Positions 1,981-54,042 of a DNA stretch of 64,000 nt are shown in pieces. Both the position numbers and the translations under genes were made by a program. Under the pieces are notes generated by a model, which saw only the letters and a list, made by a program, of their open reading frames with translations, ran no database searches and had not been told where the DNA came from. Each line of letters begins with the position of its first letter. Positions within the stretch are counted from its first letter, which is position 1. The DNA is from an uncultured Phycisphaeraceae bacterium (GTDB lineage Bacteria > Planctomycetota > Phycisphaerae > UBA1845): positions 2,068 through 66,067 of the forward strand of contig CAZPHH010000003.1 of the NCBI GenBank assembly GCA_964586145.1, given 5' to 3'.

Positions 1981-2079
1981 CCCCTGCGGAACGCCCCAGG
2001 CCGGCCCGCGACCGCCGGTGACTATAGAGGTGCCCCGCCCCTCTGGTCAAGTCGGTCGGCGTCCGCTACAAGGAAACCC

Positions 2080-4239: not shown

Positions 4240-4257
4240 CCGGGCAGGAACCGCCCT

Positions 4258-9214: not shown

Positions 9215-9434
9215 TCGCGGGCAGGCGCCGGCTCGGAATGTGGATCGGCCCGTGACCGACACGCGCGACCCCGAAGCGGGGAGGCGGACGGTCGCGGGCC
9301 GAGCGTTTGCGCGAGGCCGCTTCGGCGGCGGGGGCGGGGAAATCGCCTTGTTCGCCGGCGTGAGGCGGTCCTCTGCGGCTTCCGGGGCCGCGCGGTCGTC
9401 GGTACAATGGGAAGGTCCGCGGCCGGGGCCAGGG

Positions 9435-9788: not shown

Positions 9789-10555
9789 GCGCAAAACCGC
9801 CGCCAACGAGTGCGTCATTGTCCGATCTGCCGCTCGACCAGTTGATCGAGTATGGGCGATCGTTGGGCCTGACGCTGGCGGAGGAAACGCCGCAGGGAGA
9901 GGCCCTGCGGCGCGTTCGGGAGCGGCAGCAGTTGCTCGTGGAGCTGGACCGCGACGCCCTGCTGGACATCGTGGTGTGGTTGCGTCTGCCCGTCCGGCAG
10001 TCGGCCGGGAAGGAGACGCTCGCCAAGGAGATTGCCCGATGTGATCCCTCGGACTTTGACGGGCTCTCTCAACGTGGTCTGGAGGTGTTCGCGCGGTTGC
10101 ACGGACTGGTCATCCGACCGGGTGAACCGCGGGAGGGAATCGAGCGACGGCTCTGCGAGCGGGGCGGCCTGTGGGGTCGGGTGCGTCGCAAGCGTCGCAA
10201 GGTTATGGGTCGGCTGATCACGAGGGTGCTCGCCGGCGAGGATCACGGCGAGCCGGCCGAGTACCGGTTCCTGCCCGAAGACGGACCGCCCTCTCTGCAA
10301 CGGAACATCGAGCAGCAGGGCGTGGTGGGCGGCATAGCGCGAAAACTGCGCGGGGTGGCCGACGACTACGTCCGGGAAAAACTGGATGAGATCGAGCAGC
10401 GAATCGACCGCAAGCTGGACGAAATCGACGAGCGGCTGGCCGAGTGGCGTGACCGTGAAATCGCCAACCGCCTGCGGATCCTGCGCATTACCCTGGTCTT
10501 CTCGATCCTTGTGGCGTTGATCTGCCTGGTGTATGATTACCTGCGGTCTGGTTGA
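9785..10555 (+). CDS. hypothetical protein with helical N-terminal modules, a coiled-coil region and a C-terminal transmembrane helix
   Basis: The GTG start overlaps the upstream stop. There is a charged heptad-like region (KLDEIEQRIDRKLDEIDERLAEWRD) followed by LRITLVFSILVALICLVY. No family call. Confidence 0.55.
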   Translation: MSAKPPPTSASLSDLPLDQLIEYGRSLGLTLAEETPQGEALRRVRERQQLLVELDRDALLDIVVWLRLPVRQSAGKETLAKEIARCDPSDFDGLSQRGLEVFARLHGLVIRPGEPREGIERRLCERGGLWGRVRRKRRKVMGRLITRVLAGEDHGEPAEYRFLPEDGPPSLQRNIEQQGVVGGIARKLRGVADDYVREKLDEIEQRIDRKLDEIDERLAEWRDREIANRLRILRITLVFSILVALICLVYDYLRSG

Positions 10556-10614
10556 GACGGAATGCCGGTGCCCGCGGGCTTCGGCGAGGGCGGCTTGGAA
10601 CGGCGAACCATCCC

Positions 10615-11061
10615 ATGTATGAGAAGTTCAGCCCCAACGTCGAACGTGTGATCAAGCTCGCCGAGGAGATTGCCCGCGAGTACGACATGGAGTACGTGGG
10701 CACCGAACACGTGCTCCTGGCGATCCAGCGGGAAGGCACGAACATCGGAGCGCAAATTCTGACGCGGCACGGCATCACCGGCCAGACGCTCCGGAAGGAG
10801 ATCGACCGCCTGACGCAGAAGAGCATGGAGGATACCTGGGTGTTTGGTCGTCTCCCGGGTACTCCGCATTTCAAGAACGTGGTGGCGATCGCCATCGAGC
10901 AGGCGCGTCAACTGGAGTCGAAGGACGTGCGTTCGGAGCACCTGCTCCTGGCACTGTTGCGAGAATCCGGCAGCGTTGCGCACCAGGCGCTGCGAAACCT
11001 CGGGCTGTCCCACGAGGCGGCGGTCAAGGACGTGCTGGCGATCGAGGCCGAAAAGGGCTGA
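10615..11061 (+). CDS. stand-alone Clp N-terminal (Clp R) repeat domain protein
   Basis: Two Clp_N repeats are present: FSPNVERVIKLAEEIAREYDMEYVGTEHVLLAI and FKNVVAIAIEQARQLESKDVRSEHLLLALL. No AAA+ module follows. Confidence 0.75.
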   Translation: MYEKFSPNVERVIKLAEEIAREYDMEYVGTEHVLLAIQREGTNIGAQILTRHGITGQTLRKEIDRLTQKSMEDTWVFGRLPGTPHFKNVVAIAIEQARQLESKDVRSEHLLLALLRESGSVAHQALRNLGLSHEAAVKDVLAIEAEKG

Positions 11062-11410
11062 GCCCCCCGATCTCTCCCCGGGATCCCATGTGCCATCCAG
11101 TCGGTTTGCGCGTGTCTGCGCCACAGACGGATTCTCCCGTATCCCTTGCGCGATTCGGACACAGGCCGATCCGCCGGCGGTCGGGTGCGTCGCACAGAGA
11201 ATCCAGCGACACTTTCCAAACGCGTCGTCGGGGGGTTGGTTTGGAGTTGCCCTGCGAATGGGCTAGAATAACGATGGAGGCGGTGGCGGCGCTGTGATGG
11301 AAGCCAAGCCAGCCTTGGGTCGAGCACTCGACCGGACGCGACTTCGGTTACGCCCGCACGGGGCCGGCGCGTCTTGATGTTCCAGCCGTGTGAAAGCGAC
11401 GGAGGCGATC

Positions 11411-14335: not shown

Positions 14336-15683
14336 GCGAACCGGTCGGCCGGATGAGTCCGGGCTCGATCCAGTCAAAGCGGTCCTGGATGGTGCCGTTG
14401 GCGCCGAAGCCGACGCGGAGCTCCAGCATTTCTGCGCCCTTCAGGTCAATTCGGACCGGGCCGTGCAGGTGTCCGGGGGTCACTCTCTTCTGCTCGAACC
14501 GGATATGGCCGTCCACACGGATCTCTACGTCCACGTTGGCATACGGTCCGCTGTCGTCATCCATTCCGAAGTGGGTGACGAATGAGTCGTATTGCCGGTC
14601 CAGCGCGTATCGAAGCGTGGATTCGCTGTGTACGCCGAGGCCGCGTTCGAACGTGCGACCCGCCACCCGCAGCGGGTTGCCGAGCACGTTGCGATCGGCC
14701 TGCCAAGGCCACGCCAGGCTGAGCATGGGAGTGTGAACGTACTCGGACGGGCCCCGTCGCGAGAGCCAGGTCCAGCGCCCCCCATGGATTTCGATCCGGC
14801 GAACCTGATCGAACGGGACGGCCGTACGGCTGTCCCAGGGCGACACGTCCAGCGTGTCGCGGGTATCGGATGCCCCCGGCCATTGCGCCGCCCCCACCGT
14901 CAGGCGCGTTTCGTCCAGCAGGGTCAGACGAGCGGAAAGCCCGCGATCCGGTGATACGGTGTCAGGCACAAGGACGGCGACCGCGACGCGGTCCAGCGGG
15001 ATTCGTGTCTGCCCGCCGGGTGTTTCCAGGACGACGCCCTCGGCGTCGATGGCGGCGATCAGGCCCGTGGCCGTATCGCCGTTGTTCAGCAGCACAAGGT
15101 CGTCTTGACGGCGAGTGTCCAGAAGGCTGTTGGCGGCGGCTCGCGCGGGCCCTTCCGCCCGCCGTGCGGATAGTCGCGTAATGGCGCCCAATGGTATATG
15201 CACGGGTCCCAGCGCAGGCGTCTCGACCTGCACACGGTCATTCTCGAATGCGAGCACTCGGCCGCTCAACCGGTCTCCGTTGGCCAGCTCAAACGCCAGG
15301 CCCTGCTCGGCGAGGGGTGCCGGTGGTCCGGCGATCGTGATCTGTACGACGTCTTGCGATGGGATGAGGCGGATCTCGGCGCCGGCCTTCGGGCGGAAGC
15401 GGACGCCGCGATCCAGCGAGAACGCGACGAGGTCGCCGTCCCGGGCGTCTTCACCAACTGTCTGAAGCGTGACGGGGACAGGTTGGATGTTTTCCGCGCA
15501 AACCACGGCCGCAAACGAGACAAGCGGCGCCGTCATTCGCAGGAGAATGCTCAGAGTTAACGCGACGGGCGCGCCGTCCGACAGCGTCCGATGTATGCGA
15601 TGGGGTTGTCTGCCACTCAATCGCAGGCCTCCTGAATTTTCTTGCCCCGCTGGTCCTATCCTTCCGAGGCTGGGTGCCGGCAT
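14313..15683 (-). CDS. secreted NPCBM-domain (carbohydrate-binding) protein
   Basis: The C-terminal segment is typical of NPCBM modules (GNPLRVAGRTFERGLGVHSESTLRYALDRQYDSFVTHFGMDDD...VDVEIRVDG). The start is uncertain: ATG 15683, TTG 15620 or ATG 15536, all upstream of or within a hydrophobic leader. The 3' end overlaps the convergent M6 protease gene by 23 bp. Confidence 0.7.
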   Translation of the reverse strand: MPAPSLGRIGPAGQENSGGLRLSGRQPHRIHRTLSDGAPVALTLSILLRMTAPLVSFAAVVCAENIQPVPVTLQTVGEDARDGDLVAFSLDRGVRFRPKAGAEIRLIPSQDVVQITIAGPPAPLAEQGLAFELANGDRLSGRVLAFENDRVQVETPALGPVHIPLGAITRLSARRAEGPARAAANSLLDTRRQDDLVLLNNGDTATGLIAAIDAEGVVLETPGGQTRIPLDRVAVAVLVPDTVSPDRGLSARLTLLDETRLTVGAAQWPGASDTRDTLDVSPWDSRTAVPFDQVRRIEIHGGRWTWLSRRGPSEYVHTPMLSLAWPWQADRNVLGNPLRVAGRTFERGLGVHSESTLRYALDRQYDSFVTHFGMDDDSGPYANVDVEIRVDGHIRFEQKRVTPGHLHGPVRIDLKGAEMLELRVGFGANGTIQDRFDWIEPGLIRPTGSPTAPAPG

Positions 15684-15778
15684 CGTCGTGGCGTGCCAGG
15701 ATACATGGGAGGGTTGGCGCGGCCAATACGACCGCGACAGCGATCCGCTATTCGCGTTGGCGGGCGATTGGCATCGGA

Positions 15779-16516
15779 TCACCGGGTCGTTGGGCGGGCT
15801 CGCGCTGTCTTTCCGCGACTGCCCAGCAGGAAGCCGCAAACGAGAAGCAGAAGGGATGTCGGCTCCGGGATCGCGTAGATCGCCTTGCTGCTGATCGTCT
15901 CGTCGAACCCGGTACCGGTGGTGCCGCTGGGCAGCGCATCCGGCAGCGGCATAGGCAAATCCCCACCGTCGGCCAGTCCGATCCCGTACCCATCGTTTTC
16001 GTTGCCAACCGGCGAGCCGTAATACACGTGGGTCGTCGCGGTGGCGGTCTGGATTGTCAGGCCGATGTAGTCGATCGCGAAGGCCGCATCGACGGTGTCG
16101 GTGAGCAACCCGTGCAAACCGATCCGGCCGCCGGACAGAGCAGGGTAGAAGTGCAAGGGAATGTTGACCATCAGGACGGCTGTTTCCAGCACACCCATGT
16201 CGAGCTGTGGTTCCGCCGGCCAGGCGCTCGTGCCGAACAAATCATCCGACAAGTCGAGTTCGCTCAGCCCGCTGCCGGCTCTGCAGTCGACCAGCCGCAT
16301 GAAGTTCATCTCCACGGTGGTCACCGTCCGGTGGGCGTTCATGGCCGCGAGGTCAATTTCAAAGACCGCCGACGTGATGGGTTCCGCCAGCGGGTCATAG
16401 ACGAAGGCAATGTCGCCGTGGGCGGGGGCGACTGGCGACAGGCAGATCATCACGCCGAAGGCGGCCACCGCCGTGCGGCCCACTCGCGCCCGTTGAATAG
16501 GTTTCTGAAGCCGCAT
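15779..16516 (-). CDS. PEP-CTERM sorting domain-containing secreted protein
   Basis: The ATG at 16516 is preceded by GAGGAGG. There is a signal peptide. The C-terminus IPEPTSLLLLVCGFLLGSRGK places the PEP codons at 15860-15868, followed by a TM helix and a basic tail. Confidence 0.75.
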   Translation of the reverse strand: MRLQKPIQRARVGRTAVAAFGVMICLSPVAPAHGDIAFVYDPLAEPITSAVFEIDLAAMNAHRTVTTVEMNFMRLVDCRAGSGLSELDLSDDLFGTSAWPAEPQLDMGVLETAVLMVNIPLHFYPALSGGRIGLHGLLTDTVDAAFAIDYIGLTIQTATATTHVYYGSPVGNENDGYGIGLADGGDLPMPLPDALPSGTTGTGFDETISSKAIYAIPEPTSLLLLVCGFLLGSRGKTARARPTTR

Positions 16517-16529
16517 CGCTGATTCCTCC

Positions 16530-17687
16530 TCACTTGTTCTCGTTACGAAGCCCATCATCGTTGCGGGCCAGATCCCGCGTAATCGCGATGAACTCAGATT
16601 GCCGGGGCTCGGGTGCGGACCCGGCGGGAACGATTTGAAACACGTAGTATGTCGGCGGCGGCGGGATGTAAGGCTCGCCACTCATCAGAGTCGCTTGAAC
16701 GGTTGCCTCGATGATGGCAAGGCCTGGTTCGTCTGCCGAAAACATGGCCCATGCGCGGCCGTTGAGGTCGGTCCACGCATGGGTGATGACGCCGTTCGGT
16801 GTGATCACGCCGCTCGTGAAAGTGGAATTGCCAAACACCTTTCTGAATTCAACAAGTTCCGCGGACACCGGACGCAGATTCTGGAGGGCGACCGCCTCGA
16901 CCTTGCCCACGTTGCCGACGGGAATGGTGTTCGGGAGTGTGCCAACCATGTGAAACGAATCGACCGTGCCGTCCGTGCCGGGGAGCAGGTTGCAGAGATA
17001 CACGCGCAGTCCTTCTTCTGTCTCCTCGATACACAGGCGCATGGAGTCGTATTGCCAGTCGTCCGGCCAGCCGAGCAGGTCAAAGGCGTGACACTCCCAC
17101 GGGTTTTGCGTCCACACTTCGATGCGTGGTGTGATCGGCCCAACAACGCATTCGGAGGTGGCCATGCCCGCGGCGAGCGGCGCCCACGTGAGATTCGCAA
17201 ACACCATGGCGCGGGCCCCGGTTTCGTAGAGCGGATCATCCGGATACCAGATTTGCACGAGAATGTCAGAACCGCTCACGACATTCAATTGATGTTCAAA
17301 GACCGGGCCATCAATGCGCGAAAAGTCGAAGACGGTGTGGATGATGCTGGAATCCGGCTCGATGTAATTGAGGTCGAGTTCGTACTCGGCGATGTGGAAG
17401 CCGGCATCAAAGAAGTCGGTACCTGAGTAGCCGATACACGACCCCGGGCCCATCACAGCCTGGTTGAAAACAAGACCTCCTGCCGGATCGAAGAATATCA
17501 CCTCGCCTTCACCCGGCGGATCCCAGGTGCCGGGATACGGGTCAAACCCGCAGCAGTAGAACGGATCGATGATTCTGTGCCAGCCTGGGTTCGACGGGAC
17601 GTCGTCGGCAAGTGTGCGTGGACCGGTCAAGGCGATCACGAAACAGGTCAATACAACAAGCCCTGTCATACGCATGCTTGATTGCAT
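16530..17687 (-). CDS. secreted hypothetical protein
   Basis: The ATG at 17687 is preceded by AGGAGG with a 7-nt spacer. The signal peptide reads MQSSMRMTGLVVLTCFVIALTGPRTLA. No family motif recognised. Confidence 0.65.
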   Translation of the reverse strand: MQSSMRMTGLVVLTCFVIALTGPRTLADDVPSNPGWHRIIDPFYCCGFDPYPGTWDPPGEGEVIFFDPAGGLVFNQAVMGPGSCIGYSGTDFFDAGFHIAEYELDLNYIEPDSSIIHTVFDFSRIDGPVFEHQLNVVSGSDILVQIWYPDDPLYETGARAMVFANLTWAPLAAGMATSECVVGPITPRIEVWTQNPWECHAFDLLGWPDDWQYDSMRLCIEETEEGLRVYLCNLLPGTDGTVDSFHMVGTLPNTIPVGNVGKVEAVALQNLRPVSAELVEFRKVFGNSTFTSGVITPNGVITHAWTDLNGRAWAMFSADEPGLAIIEATVQATLMSGEPYIPPPPTYYVFQIVPAGSAPEPRQSEFIAITRDLARNDDGLRNENK

Positions 17688-18032
17688 GGCAAAACCTCCT
17701 TCCCGACTTCGATCTAATCTCTCTCTGTTCCCTCGGTGCGAGATGTGAAACCCTGGTCCGAGGTTCCCCGGATGCCCCTGGCCGGCTCTGCCAAAGCGGC
17801 CTGTCCGACTATCGTACAGCGCGCCGCGGCCTGTAACAACTCTGTTGTCGAGTTTTCCGCGGTTTTGCAGACCGAAACAATCATAGGTTCGCATGTTGCG
17901 GCGATTGCGTTCTCCGAATCCCTCCGGGGTGAGGCCATTGGTCGCCTGTTTCACGAGCGGAATCGTCTCCCCAGCGTGAGACGCAATGTGTTTCACCAAC
18001 GAAACCGGAGACGACACAAGTTCCCGTTTTGG

Positions 18033-40249: not shown

Positions 40250-42376
40250 ATGCGTATCCGCTGGAAGTTGCTGCTTCTTCTTCTCACGACGGCCCTTGTG
40301 CCCATGGCGTTCCTGACCGTGTTCCAGAACCGGTCATGGGACCGGCTCGGGCATGAGCTGGGGTACCAGTCGCGTGCTACACTTGCCGAGCGAGCAGGCC
40401 AGCAGTTGCTCCAACTGGCACAGGATCACGCGCGATCGCTTCGGCGGGAGGTCCAGACTCTCAATTTGGCCGTTCGCACGCAGGCCAGGGAGGCCGGCCA
40501 TTGTCTGGCCCTGCCGCCGCCGTCCGAGCCGGCAGTCTACTGGGCGGAACAATACGATCAGGCGGATCCGGCCATTCCGGGGCTGGTGCGCTCCGAGCAG
40601 CACTTCCGGCATACACCGGACGGGAAGCGGGAGCCCGTGCTGATCTCCTTCGACGCGCAGGCATTCGTATTGGCGCCCGGGGTAGACCGTGCGGCGGTCC
40701 GGGAAGAGGTGACCCGCCTCAGCTCGATGGTGGACATCTTTCGATCCATTCGGGCCGGGCACGCGGAGTCCGTCTACTGGCAGTACACCGCCCTGGTCAG
40801 CGGCCTTCATTCGTCCTTTCCCGGGCACGGCGGGTATCCCGACGGGTTCGACCCGCGTCAGCGGGTGTGGTTCACCAACGCCCTCGCCGAAGGGAAGGTT
40901 ACGGGCAATCCGCCGTTCGTGGACACCACTACGGGAGAAGTCGTCTTCACGACTTCGGCTCCGATCATCGGCCGCGGTGGCGGACCCGTCGGGGTGACGG
41001 GTATCGACGTCAGCATGCTGGATATCATACGGGCTCTCAGCGTGCCCACGGCCTGGTCTGAAGATGCGGATGTCATGCTCCTATTGCCCGCCGCGGAGAT
41101 TTCTCCGGGGGATGAGCGCGTGATGATCGTCGCCCAGGGGAGCTACCTCGACGCGCGAGCGGAGCACGGCCAACCCATTGAGCGGGAATACCTTACGTCG
41201 GAGAACGCGTCGGAATTGCAGGCCCTGGCGGCGGATTTGTCTGCCGGCCGCTTCGGCCTGCGGCAGATGTCCCGGAAGGGCCGGGACTGCCTGTGGGCGT
41301 ACGCGCTGGCGGATCGGGGCGTGAGCGTCTGCCTGGTTGTCCCACACGACGACATCGTGGCGGAGGGGGCGGAGGCGCAGGACAGGGTCATTCAGCGGAC
41401 CCGCCGCCAGCTCGAGCTGGCAGGCGTCGTTTTCGGGGTGGCGGCGCTGGTGGTGCTGGCGGTGGCGTTGTGGGGCTCACGGTCGGTGACCCGCCCGATT
41501 GCGGAACTGGCGGACGTGGCGGAGCATATCGCGGTCGGGGATTTCAAGATCCGGGCGACGGTCCGCTCGCGTGATGAAATCGGTGACCTGGCCCGGACGG
41601 TGAACGAGATGCTGCCGCAGCTCGAAGACCGGATGAGACTGCGACACTCCCTGACGCTCGCCAAAGAGGTGCAGCAGGCGCTGCTGCCAAGCGCTCCGCC
41701 GCAGATCGAGGGCCTGGATGTCGCCGGCACGAGCCTCTACTGCGACGAAACGGGCGGGGACTACTACGATTTCGTGGAGCTCCGGCAAATCGGGCCGCGC
41801 TGCCTGGCAGTGGCCGTCGGCGACGTGACCGGGCACGGGATTGCCCCGGCCCTGCTCATGGCGTCGGCTCGGGCGCTGCTGCGCAGCCGGATCGGCCAGC
41901 CGGGCGGCCTCGGACCCATGCTGGGGGAGGTGAACCGGCAGGTTTATGCGGATTCCAGTCGGGGCCGGTTCATGACGCTGTTCCTGGGAGTGCTGGATGC
42001 GGACGCGCGAACGATCCGCTATGTCTGCGCGGGGCACGATCCGCCCATCACGTACGAGCCGGCCACGGGGCGGTTCGATGAGCTGGGGGGCGGCGGCCTG
42101 CCCCTGGGCATCACGGACGAGACGGAGTACGAGGAGTACCAGGCGTCGCTGTCGGCGGGGGAACGGGTCATCGTGATCGGCACGGACGGCATCTGGGAGG
42201 CCTCAAACGAGGCGGGCGAGATGTTCGGCAAGGACCGCCTGCGCGAGGTGCTGCGCAGCCATGCGACCCAGCCGGCCGAGGCCATCCGCCAGGCCATCAC
42301 CGACGCCGTGGTCGCCTTCCGCGGCCGTCAGCCCCAGGAGGATGACATCACGCTGGTGGTGATCAAGCTGCTGTAG
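40250..42376 (+). CDS. membrane sensor PP2C (SpoIIE-type) phosphatase with periplasmic Cache-like domain and HAMP linker
   Basis: An N-terminal TM helix is followed by an extracytoplasmic region of about 330 aa and a second TM helix. The HAMP segment is RPIAELADVAEHIAVGDFKIRATVRSRDEIGDLARTVNEM. PP2C/SpoIIE motifs: GGDYYDF, VGDVTGHGIAPALLMA, GTDGIWEA and DDITLVV. Confidence 0.85.
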   Translation: MRIRWKLLLLLLTTALVPMAFLTVFQNRSWDRLGHELGYQSRATLAERAGQQLLQLAQDHARSLRREVQTLNLAVRTQAREAGHCLALPPPSEPAVYWAEQYDQADPAIPGLVRSEQHFRHTPDGKREPVLISFDAQAFVLAPGVDRAAVREEVTRLSSMVDIFRSIRAGHAESVYWQYTALVSGLHSSFPGHGGYPDGFDPRQRVWFTNALAEGKVTGNPPFVDTTTGEVVFTTSAPIIGRGGGPVGVTGIDVSMLDIIRALSVPTAWSEDADVMLLLPAAEISPGDERVMIVAQGSYLDARAEHGQPIEREYLTSENASELQALAADLSAGRFGLRQMSRKGRDCLWAYALADRGVSVCLVVPHDDIVAEGAEAQDRVIQRTRRQLELAGVVFGVAALVVLAVALWGSRSVTRPIAELADVAEHIAVGDFKIRATVRSRDEIGDLARTVNEMLPQLEDRMRLRHSLTLAKEVQQALLPSAPPQIEGLDVAGTSLYCDETGGDYYDFVELRQIGPRCLAVAVGDVTGHGIAPALLMASARALLRSRIGQPGGLGPMLGEVNRQVYADSSRGRFMTLFLGVLDADARTIRYVCAGHDPPITYEPATGRFDELGGGGLPLGITDETEYEEYQASLSAGERVIVIGTDGIWEASNEAGEMFGKDRLREVLRSHATQPAEAIRQAITDAVVAFRGRQPQEDDITLVVIKLL

Positions 42377-47601: not shown

Positions 47602-48239
47602 GTCCGCGGAAACCACAGGAAACATCCAATCGCACAAACCCGTGGAAGGGGAGCGGGCGGGTCTCGCCGCCGCGTTTCGTCTGGGGTCTTGGTCCCAGAA
47701 GCACTTGTCGTCTCATCGCATGCCCGGGGCTTCTGTGCAGCCGGCCTTCGGCCGTGGCTCGGCAGACGGGTCGCTTTTCGGCAGAGCGGGCCGGCGTACG
47801 ACCCATTTTGCCGCAGCCTCTTTCAATGCATCCAACCTGCTTGTCGCGTGCATGCCTGGCCGGAATCGGGACGGCCCGGTCCGCGGGCTGGGACATGCGC
47901 CCCATCGGTATTTCTGTATTCCGGCCTGCCATCCTGTGGCACTGTACTGCGCCCGGGCATTGTAATGCGATGTAACTCGAGCCGAGAGACGGATTGAACC
48001 GATACGGTGTGTGCCGCAGTAGCGCAGGGCAGCGAGAGCAGGCGTACAGCACCACGCTTTGAGCTGCGAGCGGGCACGTGCGTGGCGACGGTCGGGGAGC
48101 TGCGTGGAAGTCTGACGAACGCATACCTCGTCTTTCGTCCCCGTGCAAAGCGACGTGCCCTGAGCCACTGCGGTATGGAACGCGGCGAGGCCGCGTTGCG
48201 AGCACGCAAAACACGAAACCCCTGAAAAGGCCGGCCACC

Positions 48240-49769
48240 ATGTCCAACACGGTTACGATCAGTCCGCTGACCCGGATCGAAGGCCACCTGGCCATCCACA
48301 CCGAGACCGAGCCGCACGCGGGCGGCGCCGGCGTGCATGTCACGCAGGCCCACTGTGAAGGCGAGATGTTCCGAGGGCTGGAGCAAATTCTGGTCGGGCG
48401 CGATCCGCTGGACGCCCAGCAGATCACGCAGCGGACCTGCGGAGTCTGCCCGATCTCACACGGCATGGCCTCGGTTCGGGCCCAGGAGCAGGCGTACGGC
48501 ATTCGTCCCGTCCGGAACGGGCGGCTGCTGCAGAACCTGATCGCGGCGGCGAACTACCTCCACTCGCACGTCCTGCATTTTTACCAGCTCGCCGCATTGG
48601 ACTTCGTCGACGTGACGGCCGTGTTGAACTACACGGGGTCGGACCGAACCCTGCTCAAGCTCAAGGCGTGGGCACAGTCGGCCCTGGACCGCAAGGACGT
48701 CTTCCCGGTCGCGCCGTTCCTGCCGCGGTACGAGGGTGACTACGTTTCGTCCGCGGAGGTCAACTGCGCGCTGCTGGCCCATTATGCGGACGCCCTGAAG
48801 GTCCGGCGCACGTGCGACGAGATGGGAGCGGTGTTCGGGGCGCGGTTGCCGCACTCCACGGCCCTGCTGCCGGGCGGATGCACGCAGAAACCCACCCTGG
48901 AGCGCATCCTGGCCTATCGGTCTCGGCTGGACGAGGTGCTCGCATTCGTGGAGGACGTGTACCTGCCGGACCTGTTCGAGGTGGGCCGTCAGTTCCCGCA
49001 ATACTTCGATATCGGGCGCGGCTGGGGGAATTTCCTGGCGTACGGCACGTTTGAAATGGACGACGGCGGACGGAAATTCTTCCCGCCCGGCACGTTCATC
49101 GACGGCAAGTGGGAAGCGTTTGACCCGCGTCACATCAGCGAGGACGTCAGCGTTGCCCGGTACGAGGACGGGCCGGCCCGCCACCCGTTTGAGGGCGAGA
49201 CGCGGCCGAAGCCGGGCAAGCCCGGGGCCTATTCGTGGATCAAGGCCCCGCGTTATCGCGGCCTGCCGTTGGAGGTCGGTCCGCTCGCCCGGGTGCTCGT
49301 GGACTACCACGCCGGGAACAACGGCTGGTCCCGCAAGCCCGTGGACTCGACCTGCGCAAAGCTCGGCATCACGCCGGACAAACTGGTGTCCGTGATGGGT
49401 CGGCACGTGACGCGGGGACTGGAGACCCTGGCTCTCGTGCAGCAGTGCTTCCGCTGGCTGGACGAGATCGCCGTGGACCAGCCGGCCGTCACCGCGTTCG
49501 AGTTCCCCAAGAGCGGCCGGGGCGCGGGCCTGGTGGAGGCCCCGCGCGGGGCGCTGGGACACTGGCTGACGGTTGAGGATTACAAGGTGAAGTCGTACCA
49601 GAGCGTGGTGCCGACGACGTGGAACTGCTCGCCCCGGGATTCAAAGGGGCAGTCCGGCCCTGTGGAAAAGGCGCTGGAAGGCACGCAGGTGGCTGACGCA
49701 TCCCAGCCGATCGAGCTGGGGCGCATCGTGCGGTCGTTTGACCCTTGCCTGGCCTGTGCCGTGCATTGA
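48240..49769 (+). CDS. [NiFe]-hydrogenase large subunit (short, sensory-like; no C-terminal maturation peptide)
   Basis: The N-terminal Ni-binding motif is RTCGVCPISH (48432-48461). The C-terminal motif DPCLACAVH (49740-49766) is followed immediately by TGA. Other hallmarks: SPLTRIEGH and EAPRGALGHW. The product is 509 aa from the ATG at 48240. Confidence 0.9.
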   Translation: MSNTVTISPLTRIEGHLAIHTETEPHAGGAGVHVTQAHCEGEMFRGLEQILVGRDPLDAQQITQRTCGVCPISHGMASVRAQEQAYGIRPVRNGRLLQNLIAAANYLHSHVLHFYQLAALDFVDVTAVLNYTGSDRTLLKLKAWAQSALDRKDVFPVAPFLPRYEGDYVSSAEVNCALLAHYADALKVRRTCDEMGAVFGARLPHSTALLPGGCTQKPTLERILAYRSRLDEVLAFVEDVYLPDLFEVGRQFPQYFDIGRGWGNFLAYGTFEMDDGGRKFFPPGTFIDGKWEAFDPRHISEDVSVARYEDGPARHPFEGETRPKPGKPGAYSWIKAPRYRGLPLEVGPLARVLVDYHAGNNGWSRKPVDSTCAKLGITPDKLVSVMGRHVTRGLETLALVQQCFRWLDEIAVDQPAVTAFEFPKSGRGAGLVEAPRGALGHWLTVEDYKVKSYQSVVPTTWNCSPRDSKGQSGPVEKALEGTQVADASQPIELGRIVRSFDPCLACAVH

Positions 49770-49817
49770 TCGTGCGACGAAACCGGCAGGATGGGAAAGC
49801 CCTTGGAGATGACAGCC

Positions 49818-50780
49818 ATGGCAGAGATTTCGCGAAGGGAATTCCTCCGAATGGGGGCCGTCCTGGCGGCCGGCGCCGGGCTGGGCCCTGGCGCCGCGGA
49901 AGCCCTGGCCGCCGGTCTGGAGCGGGTGTTCACCGGTCAGAAGCGCGTGGTGTGGCTGCAAGGCATGTCATGCACCGGGTGCAGCGTGTCGCTGCTGAAC
50001 TCCGACGAGCCGGGGCCGGTGGAGCTGATCACGCAAGTGATTTCCGTGGTGTTCCATCCGACGTTGTCGGCGGCGCAGGGCCACCTGGTCACGGAGACGC
50101 TGGACCGGCTGGCCGAGGCGGGTGATTTCTTCCTGGTTCTGGAAGGGGCGGTGTGCCCGCAGATGCCGCAGGCATGCATGGTCGCCGGCAAGCCGCTGAC
50201 CGAGCTGCTTCCGCCGTTGCTGAGGCGGGCCCAGTTCGTCGTGACGGCCGGCTCCTGTGCGGCGTTCGGCGGCATTCCGGGGGCGGAGGGCAACCCGACG
50301 GGCGCCATGGGCCTGAAGGAGTTCATGGCCAGCCGGGGCATTCCCGTGGAGAACAAGCTGGTAAACTGCCCGGGCTGCCCCGTGCATCCGCACACGATGG
50401 TGACCACGCTGGCGTATCTGGCGGGCGTGGGCTACCCCGCCGTGGATCCGGCCACGCTGACGCCGAACATGATCTGTTCCAGCTCCGTTCATGATGACTG
50501 CCCGAGATTCCATCACTGGCAGAAGCAGCACTTCGCGGAGCACTTCGGGGACGAGGGGTGTTTGTTCAAGCTGGGGTGTCTGGGTCCGCTAAGCCGTTCA
50601 AACTGCTCGCACCGTCAATGGAATGGGGGGATCAACTGGTGCATTCGGGCCGGGGCGCCGTGCATCGCCTGCACGAGCGAGGACTTTGCGAAGCGGAAAT
50701 CGTTCCCGTTTTATCGCCACGGCGAGAAGTACCACGCGGTAGCGTATGGTGATGCCGACCGAAAGGGGACTGCCACATGA
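49818..50780 (+). CDS. [NiFe]-hydrogenase small subunit with twin-arginine-type leader
   Basis: The Tat-like motif SRREFLR lies at 49830-49850. FeS ligand contexts: [45 protein letters not shown] and [16 protein letters not shown] 49818 (GGAG 9 nt upstream) is preferred over 49791 or 49809. Confidence 0.88.
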
Positions 50781-52267
50781 TGCTGCAAAAAGCCAGCTTG
50801 GCCCGACGGATGTACGTGCCGACGATCGGGCTCTTCATCGTGTTCATGACGGTGCTGCTCGGCGTTCAGCACTATCTGTACGTGCATGGTTTCGAGGCCA
50901 CGCTGGGGAAGATTGAAGGCTCGTCGCTGGAAGTGGAGCGCGCGGCGTCCAAGGGGATGACCCAGGGTCTCTGGGCCGCCACCGAGCGCTGGCTGCAGAC
51001 GGGTGAGCACACCCAGTTCGTGGACTTCGCGAATCGGCAGCGGGAGCAATCGGGCATCGGGGCGATCGCCTTCGTGGGTCTGTCCAGCACGGTCGAGCTG
51101 GCCTCGCCGGCGGACCGCGTGGGGACGGCGCTGGCCGAGGGTGTCTGGGACGAGGCCGCCAAGGCCCCCGACCTGATCGTCAAGGAGGACCAAGATGCGA
51201 TCAATCTGTACCAGCCGTTGTACGTCACGGCGGACATGCGCCGGCTTCAGCCGGACATGGAGGTGGGCACCCTGTACGGGCTGCTTCACCTGGAGTTCCC
51301 CAAGGACCGCTTGAATCAGATGCTGGCGGACGCCCGTTCCGTGTTCGAAGGCCGGGTGAAGCAGTCGCTGACCCTGACCTGCGGGATGGGTGTGGCGGCC
51401 CTGGTGATCATGGCGATCAGCCTGTTCCCGCTGGTGGTCCGGCCGCTGGTGCGGTCCCTGCGGGGCGTCATCGGAAACCTGGCCGGCGGCTCGAACGAAC
51501 TGGTGGAGATTTCGCGGCAGATCGGCGGATCCAGCCAGCGTCTGGCCACGTCTGCGTCCGAGCAGGCCTCATCGCTGGAAGAGACCAGCAGCGCGATGGA
51601 GCAGATGTCGGCCATGACGCGGACGAACGCGGAGAACGCCCGCGAGGCGGACACGCTGAGCACGCAGGCGCAGGAGAACGCCGCCGCGGGCGACAAGACC
51701 ATGGCCCGGCTCACGCAGGCCATGACCAGCATCAACGAATCGTCGGCGCAGATCGCCAAGATCATCCGGGTGATCGAGGAGATCGCGTTCCAGACGAACT
51801 TGCTGGCCCTGAACGCCGCAGTCGAGGCGGCCCGGGCGGGCGAGCACGGCAAGGGCTTTGCGGTGGTGGCGGATGAGGTGCGAAACCTGGCCGGTCGGGC
51901 GGCCGAAGCGGCCCAGAGCACGCGAACTCTGGTCGAGGACTCGGTGGTGCGGGCGCAGGGCGGCGTGGAGGCCGTTCATGAAGCAGGCACCGCGTTCGGC
52001 GCGATCGTGACCGGCGCGCAACGGGTGTCCGAGCTCGTGGGGGAGATCGCCCGGGCCTCTGAGCAGCAGGCGCAGGGGGTCGACCAGGTGAATAGCGCGG
52101 TGTCGCAGATGACGCAGATGACGCAGGAGTCGGCATCGGAGGCGAGCCATTCCTCGTCCGTGGCCGAGCAGTTGGGGACGCAGGCAGAAACGGTGAAGGG
52201 CATGGTGGACGCGCTGGTGGGCATCGTGGAGGGGGCCGGCCGCGCGCACGACCAGACCGAATCCTGA
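50777..52267 (+). CDS. methyl-accepting chemotaxis protein (two TM helices, periplasmic domain of about 170 aa)
   Basis: The ATG overlaps the small-subunit stop (ATGA, 50777-50780). TM1 is [14 protein letters not shown] and TM2 is [19 protein letters not shown]. The MCP signalling hairpin is conserved: [40 protein letters not shown]. Confidence 0.9.
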
Positions 52268-52521: not shown

Positions 52522-54042
52522 TCAATCCTCCAATCGATCCAGAACGATGAAGCCGACGGCCCAATCATCGTCGGTGATGCAGCCGCTGCCTTCCTGGTAC
52601 TGGCGAAGGGTCCAGAACGCTACGGTGTTGGCCGACGTGCTGACATCGCTGCCCATGACGTAGCCAGTCTGGCTGCGGCCTTCCGCTGGCGTCTCCGTCT
52701 CCTCGAAGAGCATGAAGTCCCCGCCGGTGCTCATCTGGAGAAACTCGACGTCGCGATCGACGGCGATGGTGCCGGCGATGAACCAGCGTTCGCCGTCCGG
52801 CGTAATCGCGATGCTCGACCCGTACCCGTACTTGCCGGGGGTGGCGATGCAATCGTCACGCTCGACATCGATCGGGTCGGCCAGGCGGTCCGGCGCGGAG
52901 AGGGCACTGGGATTCGCGACGGTCCCGATGGAGCTGCGATACACGGCGCCGCCGGTAGAAATCTGGTCCACGTCTTCCTCGACGGCAAAGTATCCAAAGC
53001 TTCCGGCGGCCAGGGCCACCGGGGTATTGATCGAGAACGGGCCTTCGTTGCCCAGATTGGTGATGGAGCTGTCCGTCACGTTCAGCAGGGCCGTGACGCC
53101 GTCGCCGATGTCCGCGCGGTAGATGATGTAGTCGTCGTCGAAGGCGATCTGCACGTTGTCGAAGATGTCCCCCAGCGGGCTGCCGAGGTTGAACTCGAAG
53201 GCAAGCGGGTCGGCCGTGGGATCCATGATGTCCCAGACATAGATGAAGTTGCCCCACAGCGCCGCCACCCGGGCGGGGTCGGCATCGATGGCAACCTGCT
53301 CCGGCGTATCCAGTGCATCCGCCGGCGTCGGGAAGCTGATGACCTGCGCGGTCGATCCGCCGACGTCGATCACCTTTACCGCGTTGCCATCGTCCACCTC
53401 GTTCGGGTCGCAAATGACGGCGAAGTAGGTGCCGGCGGAAGCCATGTGGCCCGGCTCATACGGTTCCACGGGCAGGGAAGCCAGGGTGACCTCGCCGCCG
53501 GGAACCTCCACCGGGTTGCCACCGGCCACCGTGTCATAAATGGCCACGCGTCCGGAGCCCGTGGTCAGGGCAACCTTCTTGCCCGCGACTTTCCAGCTCG
53601 AGGTTTCGTACAGCGTGCCGGCACCGGGAATTTCCGTGCCCTCGGTGATCGTGTCGTCGTAGGTCGACGGCACGAAGTACCGGACGTTGTCCGGGACAGC
53701 GTACACCACGAGGTCGTCGCCCGCCTCAATGCGGTGCAAGGTACCGGAAAGGTACCCCAGGCTGATCTGCGTCTTGACCAGCGCGGGCGCCTCGTTGTCA
53801 TTGACGTTGTTGTCATTGACATTGTTGTCATTGACGTTGTTGTCGTTGACATTGTTGTCATTGACGTTGTTGTCGTTGACATTGTTGTCGTTCACGTTGT
53901 TGTCATTGACGTTGGTGTTGTTGTCGTTGGTGTTCGTGCCCCCACCGCCTCCACCGCCGGCGGGGCGGGCGGCGCAGCCGCTGCCGGCCACGACAAACAC
54001 ACCCAGGGCCATCAATGCCAGTACACAGAACAGTCGTTGCAT
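52522..54042 (-). CDS. putative lipoprotein with (NDNNV)n low-complexity linker and beta-rich C-terminal domain
   Basis: AAGGAGG lies upstream of the ATG at 54042. The leader MQRLFCVLALMALGVFVVAGSGC ends in Cys. A poly-Gly stretch and about 9 copies of NDNNV follow, then a roughly 420-aa body rich in Asp, Gly and Val. Confidence 0.7.
   Translation of the reverse strand: MQRLFCVLALMALGVFVVAGSGCAARPAGGGGGGGTNTNDNNTNVNDNNVNDNNVNDNNVNDNNVNDNNVNDNNVNDNNVNDNEAPALVKTQISLGYLSGTLHRIEAGDDLVVYAVPDNVRYFVPSTYDDTITEGTEIPGAGTLYETSSWKVAGKKVALTTGSGRVAIYDTVAGGNPVEVPGGEVTLASLPVEPYEPGHMASAGTYFAVICDPNEVDDGNAVKVIDVGGSTAQVISFPTPADALDTPEQVAIDADPARVAALWGNFIYVWDIMDPTADPLAFEFNLGSPLGDIFDNVQIAFDDDYIIYRADIGDGVTALLNVTDSSITNLGNEGPFSINTPVALAAGSFGYFAVEEDVDQISTGGAVYRSSIGTVANPSALSAPDRLADPIDVERDDCIATPGKYGYGSSIAITPDGERWFIAGTIAVDRDVEFLQMSTGGDFMLFEETETPAEGRSQTGYVMGSDVSTSANTVAFWTLRQYQEGSGCITDDDWAVGFIVLDRLED
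53794..53912 (-). repeat. 15-bp in-frame tandem repeat (about 8 units, 30-bp higher order) encoding NDNNV
   Basis: Direct reading shows ttgtcattgacgttg / ttgtcgttgacattg alternating from about 53794 to 53912. Confidence 0.85.

Follow-up and report, generated by a model that had tools for sequence, protein, structure and literature searches.

A candidate hydrogen-sensing chemoreceptor unit formed by a periplasmic [NiFe]-hydrogenase and a methyl-accepting chemotaxis protein

Three adjacent genes of an uncultured Phycisphaeraceae bacterium encode, with a probability that can be put at about 65%, a single periplasm-facing H2-sensing chemoreceptor unit, a function that we infer. They lie in a window of 64,000 nt (GCA_964586145.1, contig CAZPHH010000003.1, positions 2,068 to 66,067 of the forward strand) and are all read from the plus strand: the [NiFe]-hydrogenase large subunit (LSU) at 48240 to 49769, the small subunit (SSU) with its Tat signal from 49791 or 49818 to 50780, and a two-transmembrane methyl-accepting chemotaxis protein (MCP) at 50777 to 52267, the three codirectional genes of the first-pass annotation. 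The proposal made there, that the hydrogenase acts as the sensing module of a chemotaxis receptor, gains support from a linkage that holds in both directions, from conservation across phyla and from the separate clade formed by these enzymes; we infer from this an H2-dependent behavior. No publication on a [NiFe]-hydrogenase/MCP unit was found in the literature, in line with the earlier remark that an experimentally described complex of this kind is not known. Of the candidates to date for a bacterial H2 sensor that directs cell movement, this module is the strongest.

The open reading frame of the LSU spans 48078 to 49769, in which the ATG at 48240 corresponds to the start of the homologues and yields a protein of 509 amino acids ending at the last His of the DPCxxCxxH motif. 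The protein matches PF00374 (E = 2.5e-147) and NCBIfam NF033181 (617 bits; cutoff, 600), with the periplasmic [NiFeSe] enzymes 1cc1_L and 4kl8_L as the best PDB matches (E of about 1e-122). Both Ni-binding motifs (R65-x-C67-G-x-C70-x3-H74 and D501-P-C503-x2-C506-x2-H509) are present as annotated and invariant in 15 clade members. The N-terminal motif reads R65-T-C67-G-V-C70-P-I-S-H74 (48432 to 48461), with C67, C70, and H74 invariant in the alignment, and the C-terminal motif reads D501-P-C503-L-A-C506-A-V-H509 (49740 to 49766), directly followed by the stop codon at 49767 to 49769. The active site contains Cys and no Sec, and the gas-channel position between the Cys pair of the N-terminal motif reads as Val, the ordinary type. 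The C terminus is identical in the 15 members and in 28 of 28 loci with the order LSU then SSU, none of which has a C-terminal extension, so that a maturation protease and C-terminal processing are not needed.

The SSU (49791 to 50780) matches PF01058 and PF14720 as well as the PDB entries 1cc1_S and 4kl8_S (best matches; E = 2e-55). It comprises 329 amino acids from the ATG at 49791 or 320 from the ATG at 49818, the latter being the likelier start, 8 nt after GGAGA. The Tat export signal at 49824 to 49886 (PF10518 TAT_signal, SRREFL) scores better than the Pfam cutoff (E = 1.5e-05), and the heterodimer is thus predicted from sequence to be exported to the periplasm. The twin-arginine motif is found in most SSUs of the clade; it was missed in L005, L006, L009, and L010, which are probably start-codon miscalls. 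A full set of Fe-S ligands had been noted, and all 12 are indeed present: C61, C64, C156, and C196 for the proximal cluster; C272, C284, C291, and C294 for the medial cluster, four Cys as in [NiFeSe] enzymes; and H234, C237, C257, and C263 for the His-ligated distal cluster. Each is kept in at least 25 of the 28 clade members, the least conserved being C61 and C156 (27/28) and C64 (25/28).

The MCP start codon overlaps the SSU stop codon as ATGA at 50777 to 50780, confirmed by direct reading of the sequence, with AAGGGGA located 7 nt 5' of the start. The same four-base overlap (offset of -3) is found at 12 further clade loci, giving 13 with the window. The chemoreceptor reading presumes cotranscription of the three genes, a complex of the hydrogenase with the MCP, and an H2 response. 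Within the module itself, genes for a protease or a cytochrome and hyp genes are missing, as are a membrane anchor of the hydrogenase's own and a gene for an electron acceptor.

The arrangement is a conserved module and not a local accident. It is found in Planctomycetota, Verrucomicrobiota, and Desulfobacterota, with Desulfobacter curvatus DSM 3379 as one carrier, and it recurs on dozens of unrelated contigs with differing flanks. The check on relatives that the first-pass annotation had proposed shows the triad to be kept at 45 to 92% LSU identity in at least three phyla. Among 86 hydrogenase loci, an MCP directly follows the hydrogenase, within tens of bases of the SSU, in 26 of the 29 with the order LSU then SSU and no LSU extension, compared to 0 of the 57 others (Fisher p = 5e-19, a value that ignores shared ancestry). 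Linkage also holds in the reverse direction: of 13 MCPs retrieved through their sensor domain only, 11 lie immediately 3' of an LSU-SSU pair; the figure is 5 of 5 for MCPs chosen only by sensor similarity and 6 of 6 for metagenomic loci with sufficient upstream sequence. In an apparent exception, L096, the sensor-MCP is placed after another MCP; tandem sensor-MCPs do exist, as shown by L013. An MCP is missing from L012, from L015, and from the second pair at L013, three loci of the clade that count against the chemoreceptor reading.

Neighbor joining recovers the LSU-then-SSU set as monophyletic in 71 of 100 bootstraps and the subclade of the window in 100, and in a BLOSUM62 tree, one SSU-then-LSU group nests within the LSU-then-SSU clade. 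The hydrogenases of the module form a clade of their own, with the inverted gene order and the missing LSU C-terminal extension as hallmarks. Of the two concerns raised before, that the LSU might nest among respiratory enzymes is borne out in part, the nearest characterized relatives being respiratory enzymes of group 1a; that its MCP neighbor might not be conserved is not, the adjacency of the MCP being clearly conserved.

Both subunits find their best matches in the group 1a enzymes of sulfate reducers, those of Desulfomicrobium baculatum (1CC1) and Desulfovibrio vulgaris Hildenborough, which reduce cytochrome c3, and the match to NF033181 points to the same group. Shared features are Tat export, the lack of a membrane anchor, and the four-Cys medial cluster. 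Judged by its sequence, the hydrogenase could serve as a fully competent uptake enzyme of the periplasm, which counts against a receptor function. It may be asked whether it is an ordinary energy-conserving uptake hydrogenase, with a soluble cytochrome acceptor encoded elsewhere and a coexpressed MCP that senses an unrelated ligand through its Cache pocket. Such a role would suit the group 1a relationship, the complete Fe-S relay with its His-ligated distal cluster, the fact that single-Cache domains usually bind small molecules (citrate, amino acids, and histamine, for example), and the lack of a cofactor motif in the sensor of the window. It is nevertheless distinctly improbable, given that hydrogenase and MCP accompany each other almost exclusively, whichever of the two is taken as the starting point and in different phyla and differing flanks, that members of the sensor family practically never occur without this hydrogenase, and that the ancestral sensor carries CxxCH and a Met and no ligand-pocket signature. 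In contrast to group 1a, the gene order is inverted, the LSU has no extension, and no protease or cytochrome gene is present; in the clade-wide loss of the extension and in the lack of a gene for an acceptor or an anchor, the module departs from respiratory operons. Compared to the [NiFeSe] enzymes of this group, the window enzyme has Cys in place of Sec, and its downstream gene encodes a chemoreceptor. The absence of the extension at 28 loci, the lack of protease, cytochrome, and hyp genes in the module, and the context of L013 and L014, where the module adjoins another hydrogenase and/or hypF, argue for a nonbioenergetic enzyme.

The MCP (50777 to 52267; 496 amino acids; PF00015, E = 1.4e-49) consists of a first transmembrane helix, a periplasmic single-Cache (sCache) domain, a second transmembrane helix, and the signaling hairpin. 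In agreement with the two membrane segments around a domain of about 170 residues described before, the hydropathy scan places TM1 at residues 12 to 30 (50810 to 50866), within a continuous helix of residues 8 to 75 in the AlphaFold model, and TM2, also supported by this model, at residues 203 to 221 (51383 to 51439), leaving a domain of 172 residues. The canonical hairpin reported after TM2 is likewise recovered at residues 294 to 449, including the conserved tip (51656 to 52123), by PF00015 and by sequence alignment; it also aligns over its full length to the models of Escherichia coli Tar and Tcp. Residues 230 to 479 align to residues 264 to 513 of the citrate transducer model, equal spans of 250 residues with no net indel. 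A HAMP domain is present in most relatives; the window MCP shows no Pfam match to one, which counts against the chemoreceptor reading, as does the lack of che genes. As stated in the first-pass annotation, neither hyp nor che genes occur among the 31 GC3-supported genes of the 64-kb window, and flagellar genes are also missing from it.

It is well established that Che-like pathways can serve outputs besides motility. The module could sense H2 and pass the signal to a Che-like control of gene expression, attachment, or development, for example by inducing a separate uptake hydrogenase. The lack of che and flagellar genes in the window fits this idea, as do the variable cytoplasmic parts of the module MCPs (with or without HAMP, extra PAS domains, and different hairpin lengths) and the neighborhood of the module at L013 and L014, which comprises another hydrogenase and hypF. 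Set against it is the canonical hairpin with its full-length alignment to Tar and Tcp; the sequence gives nothing to tell the types of output apart, and we regard a nonswimming output as unlikely.

The periplasmic sensor (residues 31 to 202; 50867 to 51382) had been described as containing no recognizable motif. This holds for Pfam, which gives no match, but not for the fold: in the AlphaFold2 model (pLDDT, 93.2; pTM, 0.79), the domain is a single-Cache/PDC domain of a previously unannotated family, with Foldseek matches to WalK, CitA, PctD, Tlp3, DcuS, Tll0287, and GSU0935. The family is small, with 71 clusters at 50% identity in a search of 1.84 billion proteins, and the members found are joined solely to MCP outputs. 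A sensor HMM built from 5 sequences recovers 26 of 26 clade sensors.

In most lineages, the sensor contains an invariant CxxCH motif and an invariant Met (C146, C149, H150, and M70 in the alignment of heme-type sensors); the Met, part of an ERGEM motif, is the presumed distal heme ligand. The CxxCH-bearing form of the module appears to be the ancestral and commonest one. This layout corresponds to that of the c-type heme of redox-sensing MCPs from Geobacter and suggests a signal path from H2 through the hydrogenase and the sensor heme to CheA. GSU0935 binds its heme through Met60 and His144, and the heme switches spin state and ligation upon reduction (PMC8396549); the midpoint potentials of GSU0582 and GSU0935 are -156 and -251 mV, respectively (PMC8396549). 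Together with DcrA of D. vulgaris, these receptors (PDB 3B47 and 3B42) share with the module MCPs the two transmembrane helices and a periplasmic PAS/Cache-like domain, and the single CxxCH and N-terminal-helix Met of the heme-type relatives (M70/H150) parallel Met60/His144. Foldseek matches the window sensor to 3b42_A (E = 1.3e-2); sequence similarity to the Geobacter and DcrA heme sensors is not detectable. The natural acceptor of group 1a enzymes is a c-type heme protein as well, which parallels the heme c sensor of most module members.

In the proposed mechanism of the heme-type module, the hydrogenase would dock on the single-Cache domain of the MCP dimer encoded directly 3' of it. H2 would be oxidized at the Ni-Fe site, and electrons would pass through the three Fe-S clusters to the sensor heme, held by CxxCH and the Met on the N-terminal helix. 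Reduction and Met ligation would shift the conformation of the domain, and TM2 would transmit the change to the signaling hairpin, altering CheA activity and thereby the swimming direction or another Che-type output. The same heme layout is also open to an indirect redox or energy taxis, in which the MCP monitors a periplasmic carrier pool partly reduced by the hydrogenase and no dedicated complex is formed. GSU0582, GSU0935, and DcrA, whose ligand layout is shared by the heme-type relatives, are described as sensors of redox potential with no dedicated partner reported (PMC8396549); a dedicated hydrogenase is likewise not described as a partner of known c-heme MCP sensors, and the word "hydrogenase" does not occur in this source (PMC8396549). 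This explanation is quite unlikely here: it leaves unexplained why overlapping codons tie the sensor gene to one hydrogenase clade and why the processing extension is lost in that clade, and it cannot work for the heme-less sensor of the window.

Unlike the Geobacter and DcrA sensors, the domain of the window has lost its heme motif. The sequence A-D-M154-R-R-L157-Q158-P (51230 to 51253) is homologous to D-C-x-R-C-H-P of the relatives; hhalign places DADMvRLxP onto xxDCiRCHP with a probability of 99.9% (E = 6e-32), and the site forms a short helix (residues 152 to 157) between strands in the AlphaFold model. Both Cys are replaced, by Met and Leu, and the His by Gln (DMRRLQP in the subclade of the window). 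G76-E77-H78 (51002 to 51010) takes the place of the invariant Met of ERGEM, according to alignments and to the GE columns in register in hhalign, so that the residue at the presumed distal position has changed from Met to His. An alternative cofactor ligand is not conserved at this position, which is occupied by H, Y, N, F, S, A, or G across members. As no heme-binding residue remains, the electron transfer mechanism as written cannot apply to the window protein; the motif of the relatives offers a concrete mechanism for the family that is not directly available to this member.

The heme-less subclade groups with one heme-type clade and is thus nested inside the heme-type members (91 of 100 bootstraps). 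Its SSUs carry a C-terminal tail of 19 residues (50721 to 50777 in the window), kept only in this subclade and absent, among the clade loci compared, wherever the MCP sensor has CxxCH. The pattern GE.Y[HY]..x.Y..[DE].[DE]R[KQ]G is found in the window, L001, L002, L005 to L009, L059, L086, and L089; the tail of L087 has a similar length and does not match it. The emergence of the tail together with the loss of heme points to direct contact, against a shared carrier pool, and the tail may be the contact site for the MCP sensor. In the planctomycete lineage, signaling probably proceeds by direct protein-protein contact, through which the MCP would read the H2-dependent state of the hydrogenase, whether redox or conformational.

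Replacement of all three heme attachment residues and of the distal Met could also mean that the planctomycete module is a decaying relic, whose receptor became blind to the hydrogenase and whose linkage persists by inertia. P0183 has EWIRCH and many members have DMxRFHP, both intermediate states of the heme site. Decay is highly improbable, however, for a subclade of about 65 clusters at 50% identity that maintains the triad over 59 to 92% LSU identity, retains every metal ligand, and has gained a conserved SSU tail. It also keeps ten sensor residues that are conserved to at least 90% in 48 sequences (L73, G76, E77, F81, S109, S110, P147, D153, R156, and G168). The retention of all Ni and Fe-S ligands, the monophyly of the heme-less subclade, and the occurrence of the tail only with heme-less sensors argue that the window version is still functional.

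The sCache_heme family (DUF3365/Tll0287) resembles the window sensor in fold (Foldseek match to 5b82, E = 9e-3). DUF3365 is not matched by Pfam in the window MCP or in five heme-type MCPs (L010, L014, L027, L028, and L032), and in contrast to the module, sCache_heme proteins figure in descriptions as sensors of NO or as redox modules that stand alone, not as hydrogenase-linked proteins. The [FeFe]-hydrogenases of group C2 are cytoplasmic. They belong to an unrelated hydrogenase superfamily and are themselves uncharacterized. Listed in HydDB as "chemotactic (putative)," they are the only catalogued hydrogenase class proposed to signal via an MCP (PMC5037454). Another putative sensory class defined by linkage to a signaling protein is [NiFe] group 2c, "diguanylate cyclase-linked (putative)" (PMC5037454). 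Its output is cyclic di-GMP, unlike that of the module, where none of 49 proteins of the sensor family has a GGDEF or EAL domain.

Kinship of the window hydrogenase with the H2 sensors of group 2b (HoxBC/HupUV with the kinases HoxJ/HupT) was considered and rejected, the closest characterized relatives by sequence matches being periplasmic [NiFeSe]- and [NiFe]-hydrogenases of group 1a. Differences from group 2b include the Tat export of an enzyme that is cytoplasmic in that group, an MCP instead of a histidine kinase as the partner, the gene order LSU then SSU, the sequence affinity to group 1a, and the ordinary Val in the gas channel. As in group 2b, the [NiFe] heterodimer of the module would serve a signal transduction protein of its own and not respiration. 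HoxC, the LSU of group 2b, has no C-terminal extension, as computed for the clade of the window. The C-terminal peptide of HoxB is implicated in partner contact, as proposed here for the SSU tail; in work attributed to Buhrke et al. in 2004, the regulatory hydrogenase HoxBC reportedly signals to the HoxJ kinase via this peptide. Contact signaling in the planctomycete module would resemble that between HoxBC and HoxJ.

The three genes read in the first-pass annotation as a candidate H2-sensing chemoreceptor module are real and lie where it placed them, as judged from Pfam and NCBIfam matches and from direct reading. For the large subunit (LSU; 48240-49769, 509 aa), the PF00374 match has an E value of 2.5e-147, and the match to the NCBIfam equivalog NF033181 scores 617 bits against a cut-off of 600. 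Both Ni-Fe ligand motifs claimed for it, C67/C70/H74 and C503/C506/H509, are found and are invariant across 15 relatives; they take the forms RxCGxCxxxH and DPCxxCxxH, by which PF00374 large subunits of [NiFe]-hydrogenases are recognized. The small subunit (SSU) starts at 49791 or, likelier, 49818 and ends at 50780, combining PF01058 and PF14720 with a Tat signal (PF10518) that scores above the Pfam cut-off; the RR motif is seen in most SSUs of the clade. Its set of Fe-S ligands is full, as annotated, with 12 of 12 positions for the proximal, medial, and distal clusters, and the ligands are kept in all or nearly all of the 28 clade members (C61 and C156 in 27/28, C64 in 25/28). The medial cluster has four cysteines, as in [NiFeSe] enzymes. 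The methyl-accepting chemotaxis protein (MCP; 50777-52267, 496 aa) matches PF00015 with an E value of 1.4e-49, aligns over its full length to the Tar and Tcp models, and has a signaling hairpin with a conserved tip. Hydrophobic segments at aa 12-30 and 203-221 indeed flank 172 residues without a Pfam match, and the ATGA at 50777-50780, read directly, is the MCP start codon overlapping the TGA of the SSU gene. The 31 GC3-supported genes of the window include no hyp or che gene, in agreement with the first reading. The window also yields no Rfam family or tRNA gene. Between 47500 and 52700, promoter and terminator matches were less numerous than in shuffled sequence, and a sigma-54 pattern search gave none.

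By sequence, the enzyme appears closest to the periplasmic group 1a hydrogenases, with which it shares the Tat signal on the SSU. The best PDB matches of both subunits are the enzyme of Desulfomicrobium baculatum (1CC1) and the [NiFeSe] enzymes of D. vulgaris (also 4kl8). Contrary to group 1a, in which the SSU gene precedes the LSU gene and the partner is a cytochrome (b or c), the order here is LSU then SSU with an MCP as the third gene, and the LSU lacks the C-terminal extension that a dedicated endopeptidase would remove. No cytochrome gene is found in the module. The lack of an extension, otherwise a hallmark of regulatory hydrogenases, is shared with group 2b. Group 2b enzymes, however, are cytoplasmic and coupled to the histidine kinase HoxJ/HupT, whereas the window enzyme has a Tat signal and an MCP as its partner. 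Its sequence is group 1a-like, and the enzyme is Tat-exported, lacks a membrane anchor, and retains the complete electron relay. A relationship to the cytoplasmic sensors of group 2b is ruled out by the Tat signal, the NF033181 match, and the best PDB matches. Inverted gene order, a missing LSU extension, and a unit without a protease, cytochrome, or hyp gene are departures from respiratory group 1 operons that extend across the clade. A new hydrogenase subgroup would be called for, because classification from sequence would probably assign these enzymes to respiratory group 1a.

Among the best 120 LSU homologues (58-92% identity; 497-538 aa, most 507-513), those with names are mostly Planctomycetota, chiefly Phycisphaerae and Pirellulales. 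The order LSU-SSU-MCP is present, between unrelated flanks, in all three homologues looked up (P0001, 92%; P0002, 69%; P0020, 63%). A scan of one genome per species, scored by tblastn and ORF extension, gave 80 loci with 39-63% identity, which sort into three classes: (a) LSU-then-SSU, (b) SSU-then-LSU, and (c) LSU-protease-SSU. Class (a) comprises 28 loci including the window and, with a second pair in the verrucomicrobial locus L013, 29 pairs; its members come from Planctomycetota, Verrucomicrobiota (including Opitutaceae), Desulfobacteraceae, Desulfocapsaceae, Desulfuromonadales, and Deferrisomatales, with Desulfobacter curvatus DSM 3379 (L027) as a cultured carrier. The gap between the two subunit genes is <200 bp, and all class (a) LSUs terminate at the final His, with no residue beyond H509 in the window or in 28/28 LSU-then-SSU loci. 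In 26 of the 29 pairs, an MCP gene comes next. Its product has two transmembrane helices that enclose a 150-200-aa domain, and in 13 loci there is a 4-base overlap between the MCP start and the SSU stop. The triad, whose conservation the first-pass annotation had proposed to check in related genomes, is conserved in relatives from at least three phyla. None of the 48 canonical loci of class (b) has an adjacent MCP; most of their LSUs continue for 6-50 residues (mostly 12-23) past the C-terminal motif, and five have no such extension. Class (c) (n = 9, mostly Desulfuromonadales) has a 15-17-residue extension and a HybD-like maturation protease gene between the subunit genes. MCP adjacency of 26/3 in class (a) against 0/57 in the other classes corresponds to a Fisher p of 5e-19, a value that ignores shared ancestry.

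The three class (a) pairs without an MCP are those of L012 and L015 and the second pair of L013. The ORFs 3' of the SSU in L012 and L015 are Arg-rich, match neither Pfam nor the sensor HMM, and look like noncoding frames; the second L013 pair is followed by an unrelated secreted repeat protein. An alternative output domain (kinase or GGDEF) was not found in any of the three. L013 as a whole (positions 1-13800) contains an LSU-SSU pair followed by two tandem MCPs, both with the hydrogenase-linked sensor domain, and the divergent second extension-less LSU-then-SSU pair, after which come the secreted repeat protein and hypF. L014 has a canonical SSU-then-LSU hydrogenase ~4-7 kb upstream on the opposite strand. 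In both loci, the module adjoins another hydrogenase and/or hypF, a layout that recalls sensor-plus-workhorse arrangements.

Placement of the LSU by phylogeny was also proposed at first pass. In distance-based trees (neighbor joining, 100 bootstraps), class (a) forms one clade in 71/100 replicates and the window subclade is recovered in 100/100. One group with SSU-then-LSU order falls inside class (a) in the BLOSUM62 tree.

The alternative that the hydrogenase is a respiratory enzyme and the MCP an unrelated protein that is merely co-expressed would fit the affinity to group 1a. The module nevertheless has no acceptor or anchor gene, and the adjacency recurs across phyla between unrelated flanks, which makes this alternative quite improbable. 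The MCP can be ruled out as an electron-accepting membrane anchor in place of cytochrome b: its transmembrane helices number only two and contain no conserved His, H32 of the window MCP being Gln in L005.

The association also holds from the side of the receptor. Searched against 1.84 billion proteins, the window sensor domain (aa 31-202) has matches in just 71 clusters (50% identity), each time at about residues 31-205. Of 49 longer sensor-family proteins, 45 are MCPs, and none of the 49 has a kinase (HisKA, HATPase) or GGDEF output. When family members were picked across the range of E values, 5/5 lay directly behind LSU-SSU. When metagenomes were scanned with sensor-domain peptides as the sole seed (alignment A8), nine loci came up, and LSU-SSU stands immediately upstream in 6/6 of those with enough upstream sequence, a count that does not include locus L100. 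In the metagenome locus L096, the sensor-MCP is preceded by another MCP, matching the tandem pair of L013. A word-indexed homologue search returned no protein with the sensor domain alone and two with a 23-sequence sensor profile; the sensor family lies outside the reach of this index, and its members were taken instead from an exhaustive search of representatives and from the loci themselves. By sequence, the hydrogenase is joined through overlapping codons to a receptor whose sensor family occurs essentially only in this setting.

Five planctomycete sensors suffice to build an HMM that finds 26/26 class (a) sensors, with 0/520 shuffled decoys among the reported matches. AlphaFold2, supplied with 48 sequences, models the window sensor with a pLDDT of 93.2 and a pTM of 0.79. 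Besides five strands, the predicted fold has a long helix at the N terminus (8-75), another at 78-92, a short one at 152-157, and one at the C terminus that leads into the second transmembrane helix (TM2). Foldseek aligns it with WalK, CitA, PctD, Tlp3, and DcuS at a probability of 1.00, and the model is accordingly that of an extracytoplasmic single-Cache/PDC domain between two transmembrane helices. Weaker matches, with E values of 9e-3 and 1.3e-2, are the heme-Cache protein Tll0287 and the Geobacter heme sensor GSU0935, respectively. For the window domain and that of 6 relatives, there is no match to any Pfam model, Cache models included, which rules out membership in DUF3365/sCache_heme. 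The solved GSU sensors (3B42, 3B47) resemble the family only weakly in fold and are not matched by the profiles A3 and A7 in a PDB sequence search at E values up to 10; since these searches gave no meaningful match, homology to GSU0582/GSU0935 cannot be claimed.

The module MCPs differ in their cytoplasmic parts. In a comparison with L005 (10544-12241) and others, the MCPs of the window (50777-52267) and its closest relatives, L001 and L002, have no HAMP domain, which is present in most module MCPs. In these three, the hairpin is as long as in E. coli Tar, whereas longer hairpins or added PAS domains are seen in other members. Cytoplasmic modules of different kinds have thus been recombined with a sensor that stayed conserved.

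Fifteen of 23 aligned sensors, all of them outside the planctomycete subclade, share an invariant D-C-x-R-C-H and the invariant Met of "SLERGEM" on the N-terminal helix. The former reads as a c-type heme attachment site and the Met as a plausible distal ligand. This layout is that of GSU0935, with its ligands Met60 and His144. The heme of GSU0935 changes from high spin when oxidized to Met-ligated low spin when reduced, with a midpoint potential of -251 mV (PMC8396549). The window sensor has D-M-R-R-L-Q-P at the homologous site and its subclade D-M-x-R-L-x-P; no CxxCH is seen by eye in the sensor region of the window MCP in alignment A3. Heme-less and heme-type sensors align in hhalign with a probability of 99.9% and an E value of 6e-32, with the motifs in register, and in the heme-less subclade the place of the "GEM" Met is taken by H, Y, N, F, S, A, or G. 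Because the heme-less subclade nests within heme-type members, grouping with one heme-type clade in 91/100 bootstraps, the loss of the heme is derived. Where the sensor is heme-less, the SSU has ~15-19 additional residues at its C terminus, a tail that is absent where the sensor is of the heme type. Most tails follow the pattern GE.Y[HY]...Y..[DE].[DE]R[KQ]G; that of the metagenome contig L087 diverges.

Graded variants of the motif occur, in P0183 (L092, 3248-5557), P0147-P0154, P0165, P0169, and others. Besides the full DCxRCHP, EWIRCH (P0183) lacks the first Cys and keeps the Met ligand, DMxRFHP (many members) has lost both Cys residues and kept the His, and DMxRLxP has lost all of them, as in the window. 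The series looks like stepwise decay, and Met is near-universal at the first Cys position of the degenerate motif.

Taken with the conserved linkage, these observations suggest that the three-gene unit is a functional hydrogenase-dependent H2/redox receptor, with a probability of roughly two in three; all functional claims are drawn from sequence, synteny, and predicted fold. For the family at large, the hydrogenase would dock on the Cache domain, electrons from H2 would reduce the sensor heme, and Met ligation or a conformational change would be passed through TM2 to the signaling hairpin. In the window, where the heme is gone, direct contact with the hydrogenase, probably via the new SSU tail, is proposed to let the receptor read its state. 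HoxB-HoxJ is the analogue for this contact mode, which is a tentative proposal, held about half as probable as receptor function itself. The fuller reading combines an undescribed MCP-linked subgroup of periplasmic [NiFe]-hydrogenases, serving as the first dedicated bacterial H2 chemoreceptor, with an ancestral mode of H2-driven reduction of a Cache-embedded c-type heme and a derived, cofactor-free mode of contact with the newly evolved SSU tail in the window; it is favored slightly.

Three further explanations bear on this reading. The signaling hairpin might feed a Che-like output other than motility, and the window itself holds no che gene; the hairpin itself is canonical and aligns to Tar and Tcp, and this explanation, which is compatible with H2 sensing, seems unlikely. 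Indirect sensing of the periplasmic redox pool would suit a heme-bearing Cache domain such as that of the heme-type members. It would not account for the codon overlap of the sensor gene with this one hydrogenase clade, nor could it apply to the heme-less sensor of the window, and it is rated less likely still. A decaying relic would account for the lost heme motif; the invariant Ni-Fe ligands, the full Fe-S ligand set, and the tail gained by the SSU point the other way, and this explanation is very improbable.

H2 is a central currency of anoxic ecosystems. To our knowledge, the only molecularly understood H2 sensors are the cytoplasmic HoxBC/HupUV-kinase systems, which control transcription. 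H2 taxis has been shown only in Methanococcus maripaludis, in which the receptor was not identified (PMC3817446). The sensory [NiFe] classes of HydDB are linked to a histidine kinase (2b) or a diguanylate cyclase (2c), and its "chemotactic (putative)" class is confined to [FeFe] group C2 (PMC5037454). A table row in a 2025 neighborhood survey lists MCPsignal among the clusters near [NiFe] large subunits, without discussion (PMC12727194). No description of a [NiFe]-hydrogenase/MCP unit was found in the open-access literature; since the search covered open-access texts, an earlier mention elsewhere is possible. Rated as new are the combination, the location, and the clade; a sensory hydrogenase coupled to a signaling protein and a heme/Cache MCP sensor are known. 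The conserved, self-contained three-gene unit, in which a catalytically complete [NiFe]-hydrogenase of the periplasm is tied to a chemoreceptor, is a concrete and testable candidate for a bacterial H2 chemoreceptor, available in the cultured carrier D. curvatus DSM 3379. The module suggests a simple form of signaling by electron transfer from the hydrogenase to the sensor heme, and the loss of the heme with retention of the partnership offers a natural experiment on the unsolved signal transmission by regulatory hydrogenases. The module may also serve as a compact, portable part for engineering H2-responsive behavior.

Several other loci of the survey deserve description. The class (c) loci are L030, L033, L034, L036, L037, L039, L041, L044, and L049 (e.g., L033, 7965-11191), with a protease containing …LVMGVGNLLRGDDGFG…; their operon mirrors the MCP-linked clade, which has neither extension nor protease. 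SSU-then-LSU loci without an LSU extension are L058, L068, and L080 (Acetothermia/Bipolaricaulota), L054 (Thermotogae), and L066, and the first three have Gln in place of the terminal His of DPCxxCxxH (…CAIQ/…CAVQ). In the LSU of L070 (983-2404), the C-terminal motif reads DP*LACSVH, with an in-frame stop in place of its first Cys that is presumably the selenocysteine codon of a [NiFeSe] enzyme. An unusually long, His-rich C-terminal extension of 50 aa (…HFHGGEEVHAHRHDHEPGHRHPHGHSSQGHTHDHEP) in the LSU of L083 (8001-9371 and downstream) may be a built-in Ni-binding tail. On the metagenome contigs L086 (2044-2445) and L087 (2680-3999), the LSU 5' of SSU-MCP is called truncated, with 133 aa and 439 aa, respectively; tblastn still recovers most of the LSU (query residues 5-374 and 71-509), and the calls could be assembly frameshifts or real pseudogenes.

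Within the window, 14336-18032 is a 3.7-kb region without a GC3-supported gene or an Rfam or tRNA match, including the lowest G+C content of the window (0.598 at 16-18 kb). Convergent to the module lies a gene (52522-54042, minus strand) for a 506-aa protein without a Pfam match, with an N-terminal hydrophobic signal-like segment and an (NDNNV)n repeat run; its counterpart in L001 shows a weak beta-propeller match. A second membrane sensor, encoded at 40250-42376 on the plus strand, combines a dCache-like/PDC domain and HAMP with a SpoIIE (PP2C) phosphatase domain.
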